This document shows positions 28,374 to 60,626 of a DNA stretch of 64,000 bases, one piece after another. Position numbers and translations under genes: made by a program. The stretch is from Escherichia phage KEP4. Position 1 is the stretch's first letter. The number at the start of each line of letters is the position of its first letter. The notes under the pieces are model-generated. The model saw only the letters and a list, made by a program, of their open reading frames with translations, had not been told where the DNA came from and did no database searches. The stretch lies in sequence record PP047754, one strand, 5' to 3'.

Positions 28374-28462
28374 TGGCGGAAGGTGAAGGATTCGAACCTT
28401 CGGGGGCTAAAAGCCCCACTCGATTAGCAGTCGAGTCCCTTAAACCTCTCGGGCAACCTTCC
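28374..28462 (-). tRNA. tRNA-Ser (anticodon GCT), type II with long variable arm, CCA encoded
   Basis: Reverse complement folds as GGAAGGT/ACCTTCC acceptor, anticodon stem CTCGA/TCGAG with loop CTGCTAA, variable arm GGGGCTTTTAGCCCCC, T-arm GAAGG-TTCGAAT-CCTTC, discriminator G plus CCA. Confidence 0.8.
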
Positions 28463-29002
28463 AATTTGGAGCGGGAGAGCAGTCAGCTACTGGCCAACCC
28501 CTATGGCTCCCGCGAAATTAGGACGGGCTTCACACCCGATTGTGCATTTGATCTGCCGTAGCCCAACTCCCCGCGCTTATCAGCGCCGATTGGTTAACTG
28601 GCACCAGTGCCTTCTGGTTCGATCTCCTGGAACTTTACAGGCTTCGTGCCCGACCATTTCTGGAAGTTGGGGCATCGTTTCCGATGTGGAGTCACCCCAT
28701 TTTATACACAGCTGGCTGCAACGCTTACTGTGTTTGGTCTACCACCACGTGCTGGGCCACGCTTGAGGACATCGGCCATCCTTCCTCAGCTAATCCACGC
28801 GGTGGTAGATTTTGTATCAGAGTGTCCGGTGTAGCTTTCCGTGAGGTGCGCACTACTGTAGCCTCTACACTCTGAATTTGGTGGGCGTTACTTTCGTCGG
28901 GTTCGGATTCCGTTCGGCTATTGGACGTCGCTCGAGAGAACTTGTCGTTCGCGTACTTCGTGCTTACTTGCTTTCGTTTCACACCCATTGTTTGTCGTCG
29001 GG

Positions 29003-29023
29003 CGGGGGATTCAAACCCCAATC
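29003..29023 (-). ncRNA. tRNA-like T-arm fragment
   Basis: GGGG-TTTGAAT-CCCC motif in reverse complement followed by an acceptor-like strand; no matching 5-prime half. Confidence 0.2.
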
Positions 29024-29130
29024 TTTAGTTTGTGTTTCTTCAAAGCTATCATATGTTCACTTTGAATACTAGACTCCCCTGGACATCAAAACAGAATCTC
29101 TATTCCATCCTGCAAGACCCGACATAATCC

Positions 29131-29206
29131 TGGCGACGATGGCAGGACTTGAACCTGCGACATACGGTTTAACAGACCGCCGTTCTACCGACTGAACTAC
29201 ATCGTC
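29131..29206 (-). tRNA. tRNA-Asn (anticodon GTT), CCA encoded
   Basis: 76-nt cloverleaf: acceptor GACGATG/CATCGTC, D-arm GTTC-AGTCGGTA-GAAC, anticodon stem GCGGT/ACCGT with loop CTGTTAA, T-arm GCAGG-TTCAAGT-CCTGC, discriminator G plus CCA. Confidence 0.85.
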
Positions 29207-29619
29207 ATTTATTCTTACTTTCGTAAACATTCTTTATTTTGCATGAAGACCCAGGGCAGGATCATAACGATCGTAAGTTTTTGGATGAGACCCGTTCTTG
29301 ATGCTCACCATCCGACCTTCCCAACTAGCGCGAATTCTGTTGGAAATCACCACCCAAATATTCTTCATAATATAGAACCCTTCAACTATGTTTATTCGCT
29401 TCGATCGCCCTTAATTGGGCGTCCGCGTCAGCTTTGGTGTCATGTGTCCCAAGAACTTTAGTCTTGGTGTGGTCAAGGACAACCCACTTATCGCCTCGCT
29501 TTTCAACAAACTCAACAATCTCTTTGTTGTCAGTAGCGAGGCCATCCCACTCAGTAAGAAACTCACCGAACGTTTTCATCATACTCACCAATTGTTTATT
29601 GAACAACTGGTTTATTTAG

Positions 29620-29695
29620 TGGTGACCCTGGCTGGACTTGAACCAGCGACCAATCGATTATGAGTCGACTGCTCTAACCACTGAGCTACGGGGCC
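29620..29695 (-). tRNA. tRNA-Met (anticodon CAT; elongator Met or lysidine-Ile type), CCA encoded
   Basis: 76-nt cloverleaf: acceptor GGCCCCG/CAGGGTC (one mismatch, one GU), D-arm GCTC-AGTGGTTA-GAGC, anticodon stem GTCGA/TCGAT with loop CTCATAA, T-arm GCTGG-TTCAAGT-CCAGC. Confidence 0.8.
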
Positions 29696-55804: not shown

Positions 55805-56487
55805 TCATGAGCAATATGTCAGAAAGGTTACTTGCGACGCTAGACGCGGTGACTGCCAGAGATGAAGTTGGTAAGGAGGCGATGGAAGCCGTCTCTCCAC
55901 GTCCAGGTATTGACTTCGATGAAAAAACGGGCGAGTGGTTTGGTGAACGCCCAGAAGGTTATCAGCCGATTCCAGAACCTCCATCATTGGAAGATATCGC
56001 GTCCAAAGAATCCAAGGTTCCGGAGTTTGCGGATACTGATGCCACAACAGATTACAAGCGGATACGCGACACAACATATGCCATGCAAGAAGCCACGATG
56101 TTCATGATGGGGCAAGCTGCTAAATTAGCTGCATCTACCGAAGCCCCAAGAGCGTTTTCCGTGTTTCGTGAATTGGGCGAACTCATGCGCGGCCTGAACA
56201 AAGACCTGATGGAAAACCAAAAAACCATCAAAGCTGTGACAGGGGATAAAGAACCGCCGACTGATGACACAACCGTGGATGTTACCACTTCACCCGACGG
56301 GACCACAACAGTATCTGTTGGGAAGAAAGCGAGATCTTCGCGCGATTTATTGAAAACGATCGAAGATGCACGCCGCCGCGCTGAAGAACGCGCCCAGGCA
56401 AAAGCCACCCAACAAACCGAAGATGAAATTATCGACGGAGAAACGGTTGACGTGAAGGAAGAAGACGATGGCGTATCAGAAGCGTGA
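55801..56487 (+). CDS. terminase small subunit (gp16-like)
   Basis: 228-aa ORF overlapping the TerL start by 20 nt; central region resembles T4 gp16 as recalled; acidic C-terminus. Confidence 0.6.
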   Translation: MIMSNMSERLLATLDAVTARDEVGKEAMEAVSPRPGIDFDEKTGEWFGERPEGYQPIPEPPSLEDIASKESKVPEFADTDATTDYKRIRDTTYAMQEATMFMMGQAAKLAASTEAPRAFSVFRELGELMRGLNKDLMENQKTIKAVTGDKEPPTDDTTVDVTTSPDGTTTVSVGKKARSSRDLLKTIEDARRRAEERAQAKATQQTEDEIIDGETVDVKEEDDGVSEA

Positions 56488-58678
56488 TATAGAATATGCT
56501 CCGATAAAAACGGGGTTTAAAATCGACGACGTGAAATTGCGTATGGACCAGACGTTCATGCGCAAGCCTTCTGTGCGCGCTCCACGAGTCGAGTTGATGC
56601 TAACAGATGAACAAGAAGACGAATTTGTTGAATGTTCAATGGACGCGCATTACTTCGCTGCCAATTACTATAAGATAACGACAATCGATAAAGGCTTTAT
56701 CCTTTTCGATATGCATGATTATCAGAAACAATTATTTCACGATTTTCAAGATTATCGTTTCAATGCCGTTGTCCAGGCGCGTCAGTCCGGTAAATGCGTC
56801 CGTGGTGATACTCTTGTTTATGTCTATGATACAGTCAGTCAACAAGAGTTGCATCTCACCATAGAAGAGCTTCACAAGCGCTTCGAAGGACCGAACCATG
56901 CTGTGCCACTGAATACCATTGGCAACCACAATAAGTTTGTAGACAGCCGTTTCGGGAAACGATATTTTGTTGAGTCCGACACTGGCTGGGTTCCGGTTAT
57001 TGCCGCTCATAAAACGAAAGAATACGCTGAATACGTGGTCAGGACTGAAACCGGACGCACAATTCATGTCGCAGATGAGCACATGTTCTTCAATGAATAT
57101 GGGCGCGAAGTATTTGCTAAAGACATGGAGGCCGGAGATGCCATAATGACCCAGGAGGGAATAGAATTCATCTCTGAGATCTGGGAGACTGGTGAGTACC
57201 ACCACATGTATGACTTGCAAGTCAAGTCCAGCGATCAACGTTATTACACGAATGGGTTCCTCAGCCATAATACCACGGTCGTGGCTGCGTTTCTTCTTTG
57301 GTATGCGATGTTCCACTCAGACAAAGAAATCGCGGTACTGGCAAACAAAGAGAAACAAGCGATTGAAATTCTTGACCGTATCAGGAAGGCGTATCAGGAC
57401 CTCCCATTCTTCCTTCAGCAGGGTTGTGAGAAGTTTGGTTCTACACTGATAGAGTTTGAGAACGGCTCTAAGATATATGCTTATGCAACGTCTTCGGACT
57501 CTATTCGTGGTCGTTCTGTATCTCTCTTGTACGTGGACGAAGTCGCATTCATCGAAAATGACTTTGAATTTTGGGAATCAACATTCCCAGCGATCGCATC
57601 TGCTGATACTTCACGTTGTATTCTGACCAGTACTCCGAAAGGCCAGCGAGGGTTGTTCTATGATATCGTCACCAAAGCAGACCCGCGCCATCCGCAATAC
57701 AACGACTTCCATCTTACCGAAGTCCCTTGGTACAAGGTTCCGGCGTACACCAAAGACCCTGATTGGGAAACCAAACAACGCGCTCGTCTGGGGGATGCCC
57801 GTTTTGACCAGGAATTTGGAATCAAGTTCCGTGGTTCTGTAGGTTCATTGATACCAGCCAAATGCTTGGATAAAATGACATCCAAGTTATATCGAGAGCC
57901 TAATGAATTCACCAAAATTTACAAGGAATATGACCCGCAACGCATCTACTTCGGGATTGCAGATACGGGGAAAGGTGTTGAAGGAGATTATTCGGTTCTG
58001 ACAATTCTGGATATAACGGAATACCCGCATGTCATAGCGGCCAAGTACAGGAACAATACAATACCTCCGATGATGTATGCATACACGATAGCCGATATGT
58101 GTACTGAATACGGGGAATGCCCTGTCCTTGTAGAAACCAACAACGACGTTGGTGGACAGGTTATTACGATCTTGTATCAAGAAATTGAGTATCCAGAGAT
58201 CATATTCACGTCGACGGATAACAAAGGGACAGGGAAACGGATTGGTGGTCGTAAACCAGAGCCAGGCATTAACACCAACAGGAAAGTGCGATCTATTGGT
58301 TGTGCTAACCTGAAAGCGCTTATTGAGAAAGAAATGTTGGTGATTGAAGATCAAGACACGATAGATGAACTCAGCACATTCGTGTTCCGTGGTGCGCGTT
58401 ATGAAGCAGATGATGGATGTCACGACGACTGCGTTATGCCGTTGGTATTATATTCTTGGGCAGTTAAACAAGAATGGTTCAGTGATCTGACTTCTACCAG
58501 TATTTCTCAAGACATGAGAAATAGAATGTCTTCGACTGAGTCACAACAAGTATTCCCGTTTGGTGGTTTAGTCGTGGGAGACACTCCATCTGGAACTGAG
58601 CATCTCCCTGGGTTCGGTGGTGTTCAAGTCTTCGACGAACGTTCAGGGATGACCATGGATGAGTGGTTTAAGAATTGA
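56468..58678 (+). CDS. terminase large subunit (T4 gp17-like), interrupted by a mini-intein
   Basis: 736-aa ORF. Extein matches gp17 across the ATPase (...VVQARQSGK / TTVVAAFLLWYAMF...GSKIYAYATSSDSIRGRSVSLLYVDEVAFIEN); about 159 extra residues sit between the Lys and Thr of the Walker A GK[TS]. Confidence 0.9.
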   Translation: MAYQKRDIEYAPIKTGFKIDDVKLRMDQTFMRKPSVRAPRVELMLTDEQEDEFVECSMDAHYFAANYYKITTIDKGFILFDMHDYQKQLFHDFQDYRFNAVVQARQSGKCVRGDTLVYVYDTVSQQELHLTIEELHKRFEGPNHAVPLNTIGNHNKFVDSRFGKRYFVESDTGWVPVIAAHKTKEYAEYVVRTETGRTIHVADEHMFFNEYGREVFAKDMEAGDAIMTQEGIEFISEIWETGEYHHMYDLQVKSSDQRYYTNGFLSHNTTVVAAFLLWYAMFHSDKEIAVLANKEKQAIEILDRIRKAYQDLPFFLQQGCEKFGSTLIEFENGSKIYAYATSSDSIRGRSVSLLYVDEVAFIENDFEFWESTFPAIASADTSRCILTSTPKGQRGLFYDIVTKADPRHPQYNDFHLTEVPWYKVPAYTKDPDWETKQRARLGDARFDQEFGIKFRGSVGSLIPAKCLDKMTSKLYREPNEFTKIYKEYDPQRIYFGIADTGKGVEGDYSVLTILDITEYPHVIAAKYRNNTIPPMMYAYTIADMCTEYGECPVLVETNNDVGGQVITILYQEIEYPEIIFTSTDNKGTGKRIGGRKPEPGINTNRKVRSIGCANLKALIEKEMLVIEDQDTIDELSTFVFRGARYEADDGCHDDCVMPLVLYSWAVKQEWFSDLTSTSISQDMRNRMSSTESQQVFPFGGLVVGDTPSGTEHLPGFGGVQVFDERSGMTMDEWFKN
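56795..57271 (+). mobile_element. mini-intein (Hint domain, no endonuclease domain) inside TerL
   Basis: In-frame 477-nt insert starting with Cys (CVRGDTLVYVYD...) and ending ...HHMYDLQVKSSDQRYYTNGFLSHN followed by Thr; block F/G-like ends and a TxxH-like block B (RTIHVADEH). Confidence 0.8.
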
Positions 58679-58730
58679 TCACTAAATATCTTTCAAATTG
58701 AGCGAAACTCTACCGAGAAGGAATGATATT

Positions 58731-60626
58731 ATGGCAACTCAAAGCTTCAGCGTTGCGCCGTCCGTTCAGTGGACTGAGCGTGATGCCACGCTTCAGACGT
58801 CCCCGTCCGTTGTTGTTCAGGGCGCGACCGTCGGCAAATTTCAATGGGGTGAAGTTGAACTTCCAGTGCTGGTGACTGGTGGTGAGACAGGTTTGGTGAA
58901 GAAATTCTTCAAACCCAACGACAGCACCGCGACCGATTTTCTCGTAATCGCGGACTTTTTGTCTTACAGCTCTATGGCATGGGTGACCCGTGTTGTTGGT
59001 CCTCTGGCCAAGAACTCTGTTACCAAAGGTCAGACAGCGATTGCGATCAAAAACAAACTGGATTTTGAAACAGCAAGTCCTTCGGCGTCCATCACTTGGA
59101 CTGGTCGTTATCCAGGTTCCCTGGGTAATGATATTGCTATCAATGTTTGTGATGCTGCTGGGTTCTCAACTTGGGAATTCCGTAATAACTTTGCATACGC
59201 ACCTCAGTCTGGTGAATTCCATGTAGTTGTCGTAGACAAAGTTGGTCGCATTACCGACTCTGCTGGCGCGGTCGGTCAGGTTGACCGTATCTCCGTTTCT
59301 GGTACGGCTACTGCTGCTGGCACCATCAGTGTGGCAGGTGAAGATATCGCATATCTGGATACTGATACTCCAGCCGATTTGGCAACCAAAATCGGCACAG
59401 CGCTAACTTCCCTGACAAGTGTTTATTCTTCTGTTGTCGTGAAGTCCAACACTGTCATCGTGACACATAAAGCTATCGGTCCTCAGGCCGTTACAGCTAT
59501 CGTTCCTGATGATAAAGGACTGACTGCAACAGCCGTAATCACTACTGTTGGCGCTTCTGGTTCCATCATTGAAAAATACGAACTGATGCAGAACACCCAG
59601 GGTTCTAAAAAATCCGATGGCGCGAATGCGTACTTCAAAGACGTGATCAACGATACTTCAAATTGGGTGTATACCTTCGCGAGCGAACTGGTTGCAGGTG
59701 TCGTTGAATTAGAAGGCGGCGTAGACGATTATAACATCAACCGCGTGGCAGCTATCCAAGTCTTGAACAATGCTGAAGCATATGATGCGAAGCCAGTATT
59801 TGCGTACTGTGAAGAACTGATTGAGCAACAAGCATTGATCGACTTATCTACTGAGCGAAAAGATACTGTATCTTTCGTATCCCCGCTCCGTGATACGGTT
59901 GTTGGCAACCGTGGTCGTGAAATGGATGATGTCGTTGCTTGGCGTGAAAGTCTGGTGCGCGACTCCTCCTATTTCTTCATGGACGACAACTGGGCATACG
60001 TGTACGATAAATACAACGATAAGATGCGTTGGATTCCGGCTTGTGGCGGCACCGCAGGTGTTTGGGCGCGAAGCATTGAAATCGCGGGTATCTACAAATC
60101 TCCGGCGTTCCACAACCGTGGTAAATACAACAACTATAATCGAATGGCGTGGTCTGCGTCTTCTGATGAACGTGCTGTGTTGTACCGCAATCAGATCAAC
60201 AGCATCGTAACCTTCTCCAATGAAGGCATCGTCCTGTATGGTGACAAAACTGGCCTGACCCGCCCGTCGGCGTTTGACCGCATCAACGTTCGTGGTCTGT
60301 TCATCATGGCTGAGCAGAACATCGCCGCAATCGCCAAATACTATCTTGGTGAGAACAATGACGCGTTTACACGTGGTCTGTTCAGCAATGCGGTTCGTCC
60401 ATATATTCGCCAGCTGGCGAATATGGGCGCGATTTACGATGGTAAAGTCAAGTGTGATGAAGATAACAACACTGCTGATGTCATTGCGGCAAACCAAATG
60501 GTTGCTGGTATCTGGTTGAAACCGGAATACAGCATAAATTGGGTGTATCTTGACTTTGCTGCAGTTCGACCAGATATGGAGTTCAGCGAAATCGAATCCG
60601 GTGGCGGCATCGTTGCTGCTTCATAA
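58731..60626 (+). CDS. tail sheath protein (T4 gp18-like)
   Basis: ORF 58698..60626; start placed at MATQSFSV... N-terminal GKFQWG and C-terminal DKYNDKMRWIP...VLYGDKTGLTRPSAFDRINVRGLF match the gp18 signatures. Confidence 0.9.
   Translation: MATQSFSVAPSVQWTERDATLQTSPSVVVQGATVGKFQWGEVELPVLVTGGETGLVKKFFKPNDSTATDFLVIADFLSYSSMAWVTRVVGPLAKNSVTKGQTAIAIKNKLDFETASPSASITWTGRYPGSLGNDIAINVCDAAGFSTWEFRNNFAYAPQSGEFHVVVVDKVGRITDSAGAVGQVDRISVSGTATAAGTISVAGEDIAYLDTDTPADLATKIGTALTSLTSVYSSVVVKSNTVIVTHKAIGPQAVTAIVPDDKGLTATAVITTVGASGSIIEKYELMQNTQGSKKSDGANAYFKDVINDTSNWVYTFASELVAGVVELEGGVDDYNINRVAAIQVLNNAEAYDAKPVFAYCEELIEQQALIDLSTERKDTVSFVSPLRDTVVGNRGREMDDVVAWRESLVRDSSYFFMDDNWAYVYDKYNDKMRWIPACGGTAGVWARSIEIAGIYKSPAFHNRGKYNNYNRMAWSASSDERAVLYRNQINSIVTFSNEGIVLYGDKTGLTRPSAFDRINVRGLFIMAEQNIAAIAKYYLGENNDAFTRGLFSNAVRPYIRQLANMGAIYDGKVKCDEDNNTADVIAANQMVAGIWLKPEYSINWVYLDFAAVRPDMEFSEIESGGGIVAAS

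Follow-up and report, generated by a model that had tools for sequence, protein, structure and literature searches.

In the window, the whole 64,000-nt stretch of DNA analysed, the Walker A P-loop of the large terminase subunit (TerL), a Kuttervirus protein of the T4 gp17 type, is very probably interrupted by a canonical class 1 mini-intein, which is predicted to splice. The element is already known, an identical protein with equal intein boundaries having been annotated and published since 2013. The window phage is a Kuttervirus (Vi01-like, Ackermannviridae) and its TerL is a T4 gp17-type large terminase (Terminase_6). In Pfam, the protein matched Terminase_6N (PF03237, E=3e-16, residues 269-460) and Terminase_6C (PF17289), and in its spliced form it matched the gp17 structures of the PDB (3ezk and 3cpe) at E~1e-75 across residues 28-516. 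The gene lies in a T4-like morphogenesis block of the window that comprises neck protein, tail-sheath stabiliser, small terminase (TerS), large terminase and tail sheath, where TerL is flanked by TerS and the tail sheath in the gp16-gp17-gp18 gene order. According to the ORF list, no free-standing endonuclease gene adjoins TerL within the window. The coordinates of the gene, the exteins and the intein motifs are collected in Table 1.

Table 1. Features of the intein-containing TerL gene in the window, with the evidence for each.
Feature	Coordinates (nt)	Strand	Evidence
TerL precursor gene, T4 gp17-type large terminase (736 aa, 84.7 kDa; stop codon included)	56468..58678	+	ORF list
N-extein, residues 1-109	56468..56794	+	Aligned to T4 gp17 SRQLGK
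Predicted class 1 mini-intein, Cys110-Asn268 (159 aa, 18.6 kDa)	56795..57271	+	Intein HMM and PDB matches; Marshall annotation; gap in K368
Block A CVRGDTLVYVYDT, with Cys1 as putative first nucleophile	56795..56833	+	TIGR01445 alignment begins at intein residue 1
Block B GRTIHVADEHMFF, with conserved His96	57053..57091	+	Aligned to gp41-1 GKEIICSEEHLF
Block F HMYDLQVKSSDQRYYTNG, with Asp140	57203..57256	+	Aligned to the block F region of gp41-1, Cdc21, CatC and VidaL
Block G NGFLSHN and Thr269 (putative +1 nucleophile)	57251..57274	+	TIGR01443 weak match; alignment
C-extein, residues 269-736	57272..58675	+	Pfam and alignment to T4 gp17

By motif search, the insert of 159 codons was found to split the Walker A motif (ARQSGK/TT) between Lys109 and Thr269, the protein reading FNAVVQARQSGK before the insert, CVRGDTLVYVYD and QRYYTNGFLSHN at the two ends of the insert and TTVVAAFLLWYA after it. 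The first half of Walker A, A104-R-Q-S-G-K109 (nt 56777-56794), thus closes the N-extein, while the C-extein opens with the Thr-Thr of Walker A, followed by what remains of the ATPase domain and by an RNase H-like nuclease domain. Removal of residues 110-268 left a 577-aa protein which was aligned to T4 gp17 (PDB 3ezk, E=4.6e-76) with no gap at the P-loop, where the spliced extein ARQSGKTTVVAAFL stood above SRQLGKTTVVAIFL of T4 gp17. In a multiple alignment with the intein-free TerL of Vibrio phage K368, the gap covered residues 110-268 exactly. Searches by tblastn with the spliced ATPase region gave two-piece matches with an extra 477 nt in close relatives among the matches listed, and single-piece matches in intein-free TerLs such as those of Vibrio phage K368 and Aeromonas phage TSW001 (both 67% identical). 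An earlier sequence-only reading of this DNA had proposed an insert of this position, length and flanks lying exactly between the Lys and the Thr of the P-loop. Its boundaries proved exact to the nucleotide, and both T4 gp17 and the K368 TerL are contiguous at the site.

The same reading had taken the insert for an intein, and comparisons with intein models agree with it. The 159-aa segment matched TIGR01445 (intein_Nterm) at 26.8 bits, above the cut-off of 24.5, and PF14890 (Intein_splicing) at E=3.9e-8 with 33.7 bits, slightly under the cut-off of 35.8; TIGR01443 (intein_Cterm) gave a weak match over residues 139-159 (11.9 bits against a cut-off of 15.6). When the PDB was searched with the single sequence, the best matches were inteins only, namely gp41-1 (E=8e-4), Cdc21, the consensus intein CatC, VidaL and Mxe GyrA. 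A profile was then made of the window intein and the segments from six other Ackermannviridae TerLs (seven sequences in all), each of which matched PF14890. With this profile all six PDB matches were inteins, including gp41-1 (E=1e-8), VidaL (3e-8) and the Cdc21 intein (2e-6), so that gp41-1 (6qaz/6riz) and VidaL (6vgv) are the closest solved structures by sequence. A single-sequence AlphaFold2 prediction of the intein had a mean pLDDT of 36, too low to be of use, and support for the fold comes from the sequence profiles only. When homologous proteins were sought with the intein alone, the mature peptide 'intein' of RefSeq and a single incomplete fragment were the only matches. An HMM of the seven inteins, run against the six-frame ORFs of the window, found the TerL copy and no further member of the family.

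Hint blocks A, B, F and G, a Cys at position 1, a block B His, a C-terminal His-Asn and a +1 Thr are all present, as expected of a class 1 intein. Across the seven sequences, the invariant residues were C1, V2 and D5 in block A (the Cys110 codon being TGC at 56795-56797), A93, D94 and H96 in block B (VADEH), H137, M138, D140, L141, Q142 and V143 in block F (HMYDLQV), and L156, S157, the penultimate His158 and the terminal Asn159 in block G. Throughout the family Ala93 replaces the usual Thr of the block B TxxH, a Thr that is less strictly conserved among inteins. The intein was followed by a +1 Thr in all aligned sequences, and C1, H96, D140, H158, N159 and the +1 Thr were invariant down to 33% identity (the Vibrio phage VP-1 member). 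The Cys start, the His-Asn end followed by Thr and the block F/G-like sequence noticed at first reading were borne out, block F/G being canonical (HMYDLQV...YYTNGFLSHN). As to the other classes, class 3 inteins are recognised by a block B Trp, a block F Cys and a block G Thr. No such WCT motif was found in the segment, whose block F has Asp140 without Cys and whose block G reads FLSHN; neither is it a class 2 intein, position 1 being Cys and not Ala. By the class definitions, class 2 corresponds to Ala1 and class 3 to the WCT motif (PMC2807308).

The segment also has the dimensions of a mini-intein, for which a length of about 130-200 aa is usual. A Pfam scan of its 159 residues at E<=1 gave Intein_splicing only and no endonuclease domain, and residues 58-159 were collinear with residues 28-128 of the 128-aa gp41-1 intein. 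The extra length relative to gp41-1, about 30 residues, lies in the N-terminal half, where residues 1-57 correspond to gp41-1 residues 1-27. The window intein shares with gp41-1 and VidaL a compact Hint core, a block B xxxH, blocks F and G and the C-terminal HN. Both gp41-1 and VidaL are naturally split inteins of environmental phage-like sequences, located in other host proteins, whereas the window intein is contiguous. The view that the insert has no room for an endonuclease is consequently upheld by its length, by the absence of a homing-endonuclease match in the scan and by its collinearity with gp41-1; self-homing is impossible for the TerL intein, since it has no endonuclease. A 194-aa antisense ORF (56732-57316) spanning the whole intein was considered as a possible hidden endonuclease and rejected, as it had no Pfam match. 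Its stop-free length was not conserved among relatives (194, 164, 126, 124, 88, 164 and 81), and comparable antisense runs occurred nearby (258, 186, 154 and 151 aa), so the ORF was judged to be due to chance.

The window TerL protein is 100% identical to that of Salmonella phage Marshall (AGY47567.1). In the Marshall record (KF669653.1) the CDS is named 'intein-containing terminase large subunit', carries the note 'intein from Cys110 to Asn268' and has separate mat_peptide features for TerL and for the intein. The interruption of the large terminase by an intein was published in a 2013 genome announcement (PMC3853055), and the intein is also annotated in Maynard (KF669654.1), Mooltan and Klebsiella phage Magnus. 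It further stands in nr as an entry of its own, 'intein' (P0001), and a 2024 paper on Vi01-like phages has a 'terminase large subunit precursor' in its list. Compared with the TerL intein of Marshall and Maynard, the window intein is the same element at the same site of the same host gene with the same Cys110-Asn268 boundaries, with no substantive difference. At the DNA level the window TerL is 99.4% identical to its best records (Escherichia phage Sa157lw and Salmonella phages Marshall, Maynard and Mooltan), so that the window comes from a very close relative but another isolate. The finding is hence correct but known, because prior annotation and publication cover both the element and its boundaries. 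In many of the ~280 database genomes the intein goes unmentioned, the gene being called simply 'terminase large subunit' or 'hypothetical protein', and their intein annotation could be harmonised.

Homologs of the intein were found in 320 phage records, of which ~278 had at least 60% identity and belonged to Ackermannviridae of Salmonella, Escherichia, Shigella, Klebsiella, Dickeya, Serratia, Enterobacter and Erwinia. This count roughly equals that of the records with a TerL ATPase region at least 80% identical (282), and the intein thus appears to be effectively fixed in enterobacterial Ackermannviridae. To call it a mobile element, as had been done at first, is consequently only partly apt, given that it has no endonuclease and seems fixed in nearly all of these phages, in which it is passed on together with the gene. 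In one record, that of Klebsiella phage TTM-TASP117, the intein matched in two pieces; an insertion inside the intein was rejected, the pieces being separated by an assembly gap of 100 N. More distant relatives were found in the TerLs of Vibrio phage VP-1, Campylobacter phage CP21 and Salicola jumbo phage SCTP-2 and, outside TerL, in a UvsX-like protein of PA5oct. Those of VP-1 and of the Campylobacter phages CP21 and vB_CcoM-IBB_35 (PMC3322345) lie, like the window intein, in the P-loop of T4-type TerLs and are 33-38% identical to it across the C-terminal ~115 residues. The VP-1 intein occupies the same GK/T site and has 179 aa, with a 19-residue insertion and one further inserted residue when compared with the window intein, whereas the CP21 intein is inserted three residues upstream (PRQ/SSKS) and is followed by a +1 Ser. 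Unlike that of the window, the CP21 TerL gene is additionally interrupted, by an intron with an HNH endonuclease (PMC3322345).

Within Kuttervirus, two intein alleles seem to occur in near-identical exteins, a small addition to the known facts which is put forward as a lead and not as a result. Between the window phage and CBA120, the exteins were 99.0% identical in amino acids and the inteins 78.6%; with the intein of Klebsiella phage Magnus, the window intein had a higher identity, 84.3%. Synonymous differences between the window and CBA120 gave a pS of 0.78 in the intein (saturated, and at the intergeneric level) against 0.45-0.59 in the flanking extein (unsaturated), and the drop in DNA identity coincided with the intein boundaries at a resolution of 100 nt. 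For the few genomes compared, this pattern suggests that the history of the intein differs from that of its flanks and is the older one, by way of either allele exchange or homogenisation of the exteins.

It is possible, although rather unlikely, that horizontal exchange of the intein among Ackermannviridae continues, through homologous recombination when phages co-infect a cell and perhaps with help in trans from the free-standing homing endonucleases encoded beside TerL in some relatives, and that the intein is therefore not a purely vertical, immobilised remnant. Besides the intergeneric divergence of the intein inside an almost unchanged extein and its proximity to that of Magnus, such exchange is favoured by the free-standing endonuclease genes with which Dickeya phage XF4 and Klebsiella phage TTM-TASP117 separate TerS from TerL, and by sharp mosaicism beside TerL (~100% identity at 58695-59395). 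However, the allele follows the TerL DNA clade (91 records have at least 90% identity in TerL DNA, and 91 at least 90% in the intein) and therefore gives no sign of a recent swap, and the distances of intein and extein are in agreement beyond Kuttervirus. Moreover, the comparison covers a handful of genomes, and an equal pattern could arise if intein and extein evolved at different rates or if recombination had homogenised the exteins. The more general proposition that an endonuclease-less intein is no frozen passenger but is passed between Ackermannviridae lineages by recombination, with free-standing homing endonucleases perhaps assisting in a kind of 'collaborative homing', must be regarded as speculative and doubtful; to our knowledge, collaborative homing has so far been described for introns and not for inteins.

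Regarding the function of the class 1 intein, translation of TerL would give an 84.7-kDa precursor with Lys109 and Thr269 parted by 159 residues, a separation that would keep the ATP site from forming. Splicing would then begin with an N-S acyl shift at Cys110, aided by the block B His (intein His96), followed by attack of the Thr269 (+1) hydroxyl on the thioester to give a branched intermediate. Cyclisation of Asn268, aided by the penultimate His267 and the block F Asp, would release the 18.6-kDa intein, and an O-N shift would restore a normal Lys-Thr peptide bond. The expected product is a 577-aa TerL of 66.2 kDa with an intact ARQSGKTT Walker A motif. The junction peptide of the spliced TerL with a missed trypsin cleavage at K109 would be QSGKTTVVAAFLLWYAMFHSDK. 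In the literature searched, the Ackermannviridae TerL intein was mentioned at the level of annotation, and no splicing experiment on it was found. From the sequence we infer that splicing occurs and that packaging would require it, since 159 residues between Lys and Thr preclude a functional P-loop and since the catalytic residues are conserved. That plaque-isolated phages, in ~280 genomes, have a TerL with a split P-loop likewise argues that splicing repairs the protein.

A closely similar situation is offered by the TerL inteins of mycobacteriophages. Insertion between Lys and Thr is the 'classic' site of P-loop inteins, and other TerL inteins do splice (PMC5050341). The TerL1-a inteins lie, as in the window, between the invariant P-loop Lys and the nucleophilic Thr, with the shared consequence that no ATPase site or oligomer would be formed before splicing (PMC5050341). 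The same split-P-loop argument was made for mycobacteriophage TerL inteins by Kelley et al. in 2016, and representatives were shown to splice (PMC5050341); splicing is experimental for TerL1-b, -c, -e, TerL6-f and Pham3880-g, whereas that of the window intein is predicted. The two groups differ in that the TerL1-a inteins belong to terminase_1-family TerLs of actinobacteriophages and the window intein to a terminase_6 (T4 gp17-type) TerL, while the terminase_6 inteins of the same study are inserted in the C-motif and not in the P-loop (PMC5050341). Several mycobacteriophage TerL inteins also have active endonucleases (PMC5050341), unlike the window intein.

The intein is under purifying selection, with a dN/dS of 0.039 (C-extein, 0.033) when the window is compared with Klebsiella phage Magnus, and a pN/pS of ~0.19 for the intein between the window and CBA120. 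In addition to the basic splicing mechanism, and without replacing it, the intein might act as a conditional switch: its response to temperature, to redox state or to some signal late in infection would delay the ATPase of the terminase until proheads and concatemers are ready. The retention of the intein in nearly all enterobacterial Ackermannviridae TerLs, a selection equal to that on the extein in the Magnus comparison and the possible retention of P-loop inteins by selection as regulators (PMC4760082, PMC5050341) are compatible with such a role. It is nonetheless improbable, as the sequence has no hint of a sensor, for instance no second Cys placed for a disulfide trap, retention is explained equally well by the difficulty of deleting an intein exactly from an essential motif, and purifying selection would follow from the mere need for splicing to work. 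That the segment is instead a structured non-splicing insertion, such as a bacterial intein-like (BIL) or other Hint-derived domain, kept in the mature terminase is scarcely credible: the splicing of the TerL intein is inferred rather than directly observed and two family members gave a weak PT-HINT match, but the segment parts a Walker A Lys and Thr which are invariant and are contiguous in T4 gp17 and the K368 TerL, none of the splicing residues varies, the +1 nucleophile and the terminal Asn included, and BIL domains typically lie in variable regions of non-essential proteins.

The significance of the TerL intein is limited, and its position is in keeping with the well-documented tendency of inteins to occur in P-loops and in terminases. 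As a contiguous, compact intein of 159 aa with Cys1 and a +1 Thr, it may have some minor use in protein engineering, and the two-allele pattern provides a small lead on how mini-inteins persist or move. For the Vi01-like phages, which are widely used in biocontrol of Salmonella and E. coli O157, the presence of a class 1 mini-intein in the P-loop would mean that the packaging ATPase is made as an inactive precursor and is presumably activated by protein splicing.

A related intein was recognised in the same P-loop of TerL in Campylobacter phage CP21, three residues upstream of the window intein site (PRQ/C...SHN/SSKS, slashes marking the intein junctions, with Ser as the +1 residue), and a second intein-like start, CLENTRVQV, is found near Walker B after RGFS; the annotation of this gene is in two pieces. 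In Salicola jumbo phage SCTP-2, the ORF annotated as 'terminase large subunit' (gp267) starts within a related intein, whose approximately 115 C-terminal residues are followed by the extein (...ILSHN/TAVAALYLLWYAMF), the insertion being at the same GK/T site, between the P-loop Lys and Thr, as that of the window intein. The Walker B region of gp267 also contains a second intein-like start, CLDGETTV, and, judging from its sequence, SCTP-2 TerL looks like a fragmented protein whose pieces carry split inteins.

An ORF with RecA/UvsX-like P-loop sequence was also observed in Pseudomonas phage PA5oct (EST35_0210), where it is annotated as 'structural protein', the matching region of Pseudomonas phage Cassandra being annotated as 'UvsX-like recombinase'. 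This ORF starts within the C-terminal part of a VidaL-like intein ending in ...GFSSHN/SGKS, and a Hef-like endonuclease gene is located downstream; EST35_0210 appears to represent a split-intein arrangement in another P-loop.

Coordinates of the features in the window and in the comparison loci (L)
Feature	Phage	Position	Strand	Remark
Intein	KEP4	window 56795-57271
Intein	Escherichia phage CBA120	L003:2501-2977
Intein	Klebsiella phage Magnus	L004:2501-2977
TerL	CP21	L009:1994-3205
gp267	SCTP-2	L011:1492-2385
EST35_0210	PA5oct	L012:1438-2709
F-LimIX free-standing homing-endonuclease gene	Dickeya phage XF4	L005:1309-2187		between TerS and TerL
HNH-like ORF, free-standing homing-endonuclease gene	Klebsiella phage TTM-TASP117	L010:806-1687		between TerS and TerL
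Scaffold gap, 100 N	TTM-TASP117	L010:2150-2250		duplicated flank
Antisense ORF, 194 aa	KEP4	window 56732-57316	-	covers entire intein
5' part of tail sheath gene	KEP4	window 58695-59395
Three-tRNA gene cluster (Ser-GCT, Asn-GTT, Met-CAT)	KEP4	window 28374-29695	-	ARAGORN and Rfam in agreement

In XF4 and TTM-TASP117, some 330 nt separate the endonuclease gene from the intein site downstream of it. No free-standing homing-endonuclease gene was found between TerS and TerL in the window, and these two genes overlap there by 20 nt. The TTM-TASP117 TerL annotation is split by the scaffold gap, which falls within the intein coding region, and this interruption was rejected as biology and attributed to an assembly artefact. 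The antisense ORF was likewise rejected as a real gene and judged a chance ORF, since it has no Pfam match, its length is not kept among relatives and the surrounding DNA contains other antisense runs of this kind.

Directly downstream of TerL, the tail sheath gene shares ~100% DNA identity with CBA120 in its 5' portion, compared with only ~88% across TerL, and identity drops again past ~59400; this rise and fall indicates a probable mosaic recombination tract bordering TerL. Between the window and CBA120, the TerL exteins show 99.0% amino acid identity with synonymous differences (pS) of 0.45-0.59, whereas the inteins show 78.6% identity with a saturated pS of 0.78, the Magnus intein being nearer to that of the window (84.3%). 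On these sequences, two intein alleles exist in Kuttervirus, and the intein segment would have a different history from its flanks.
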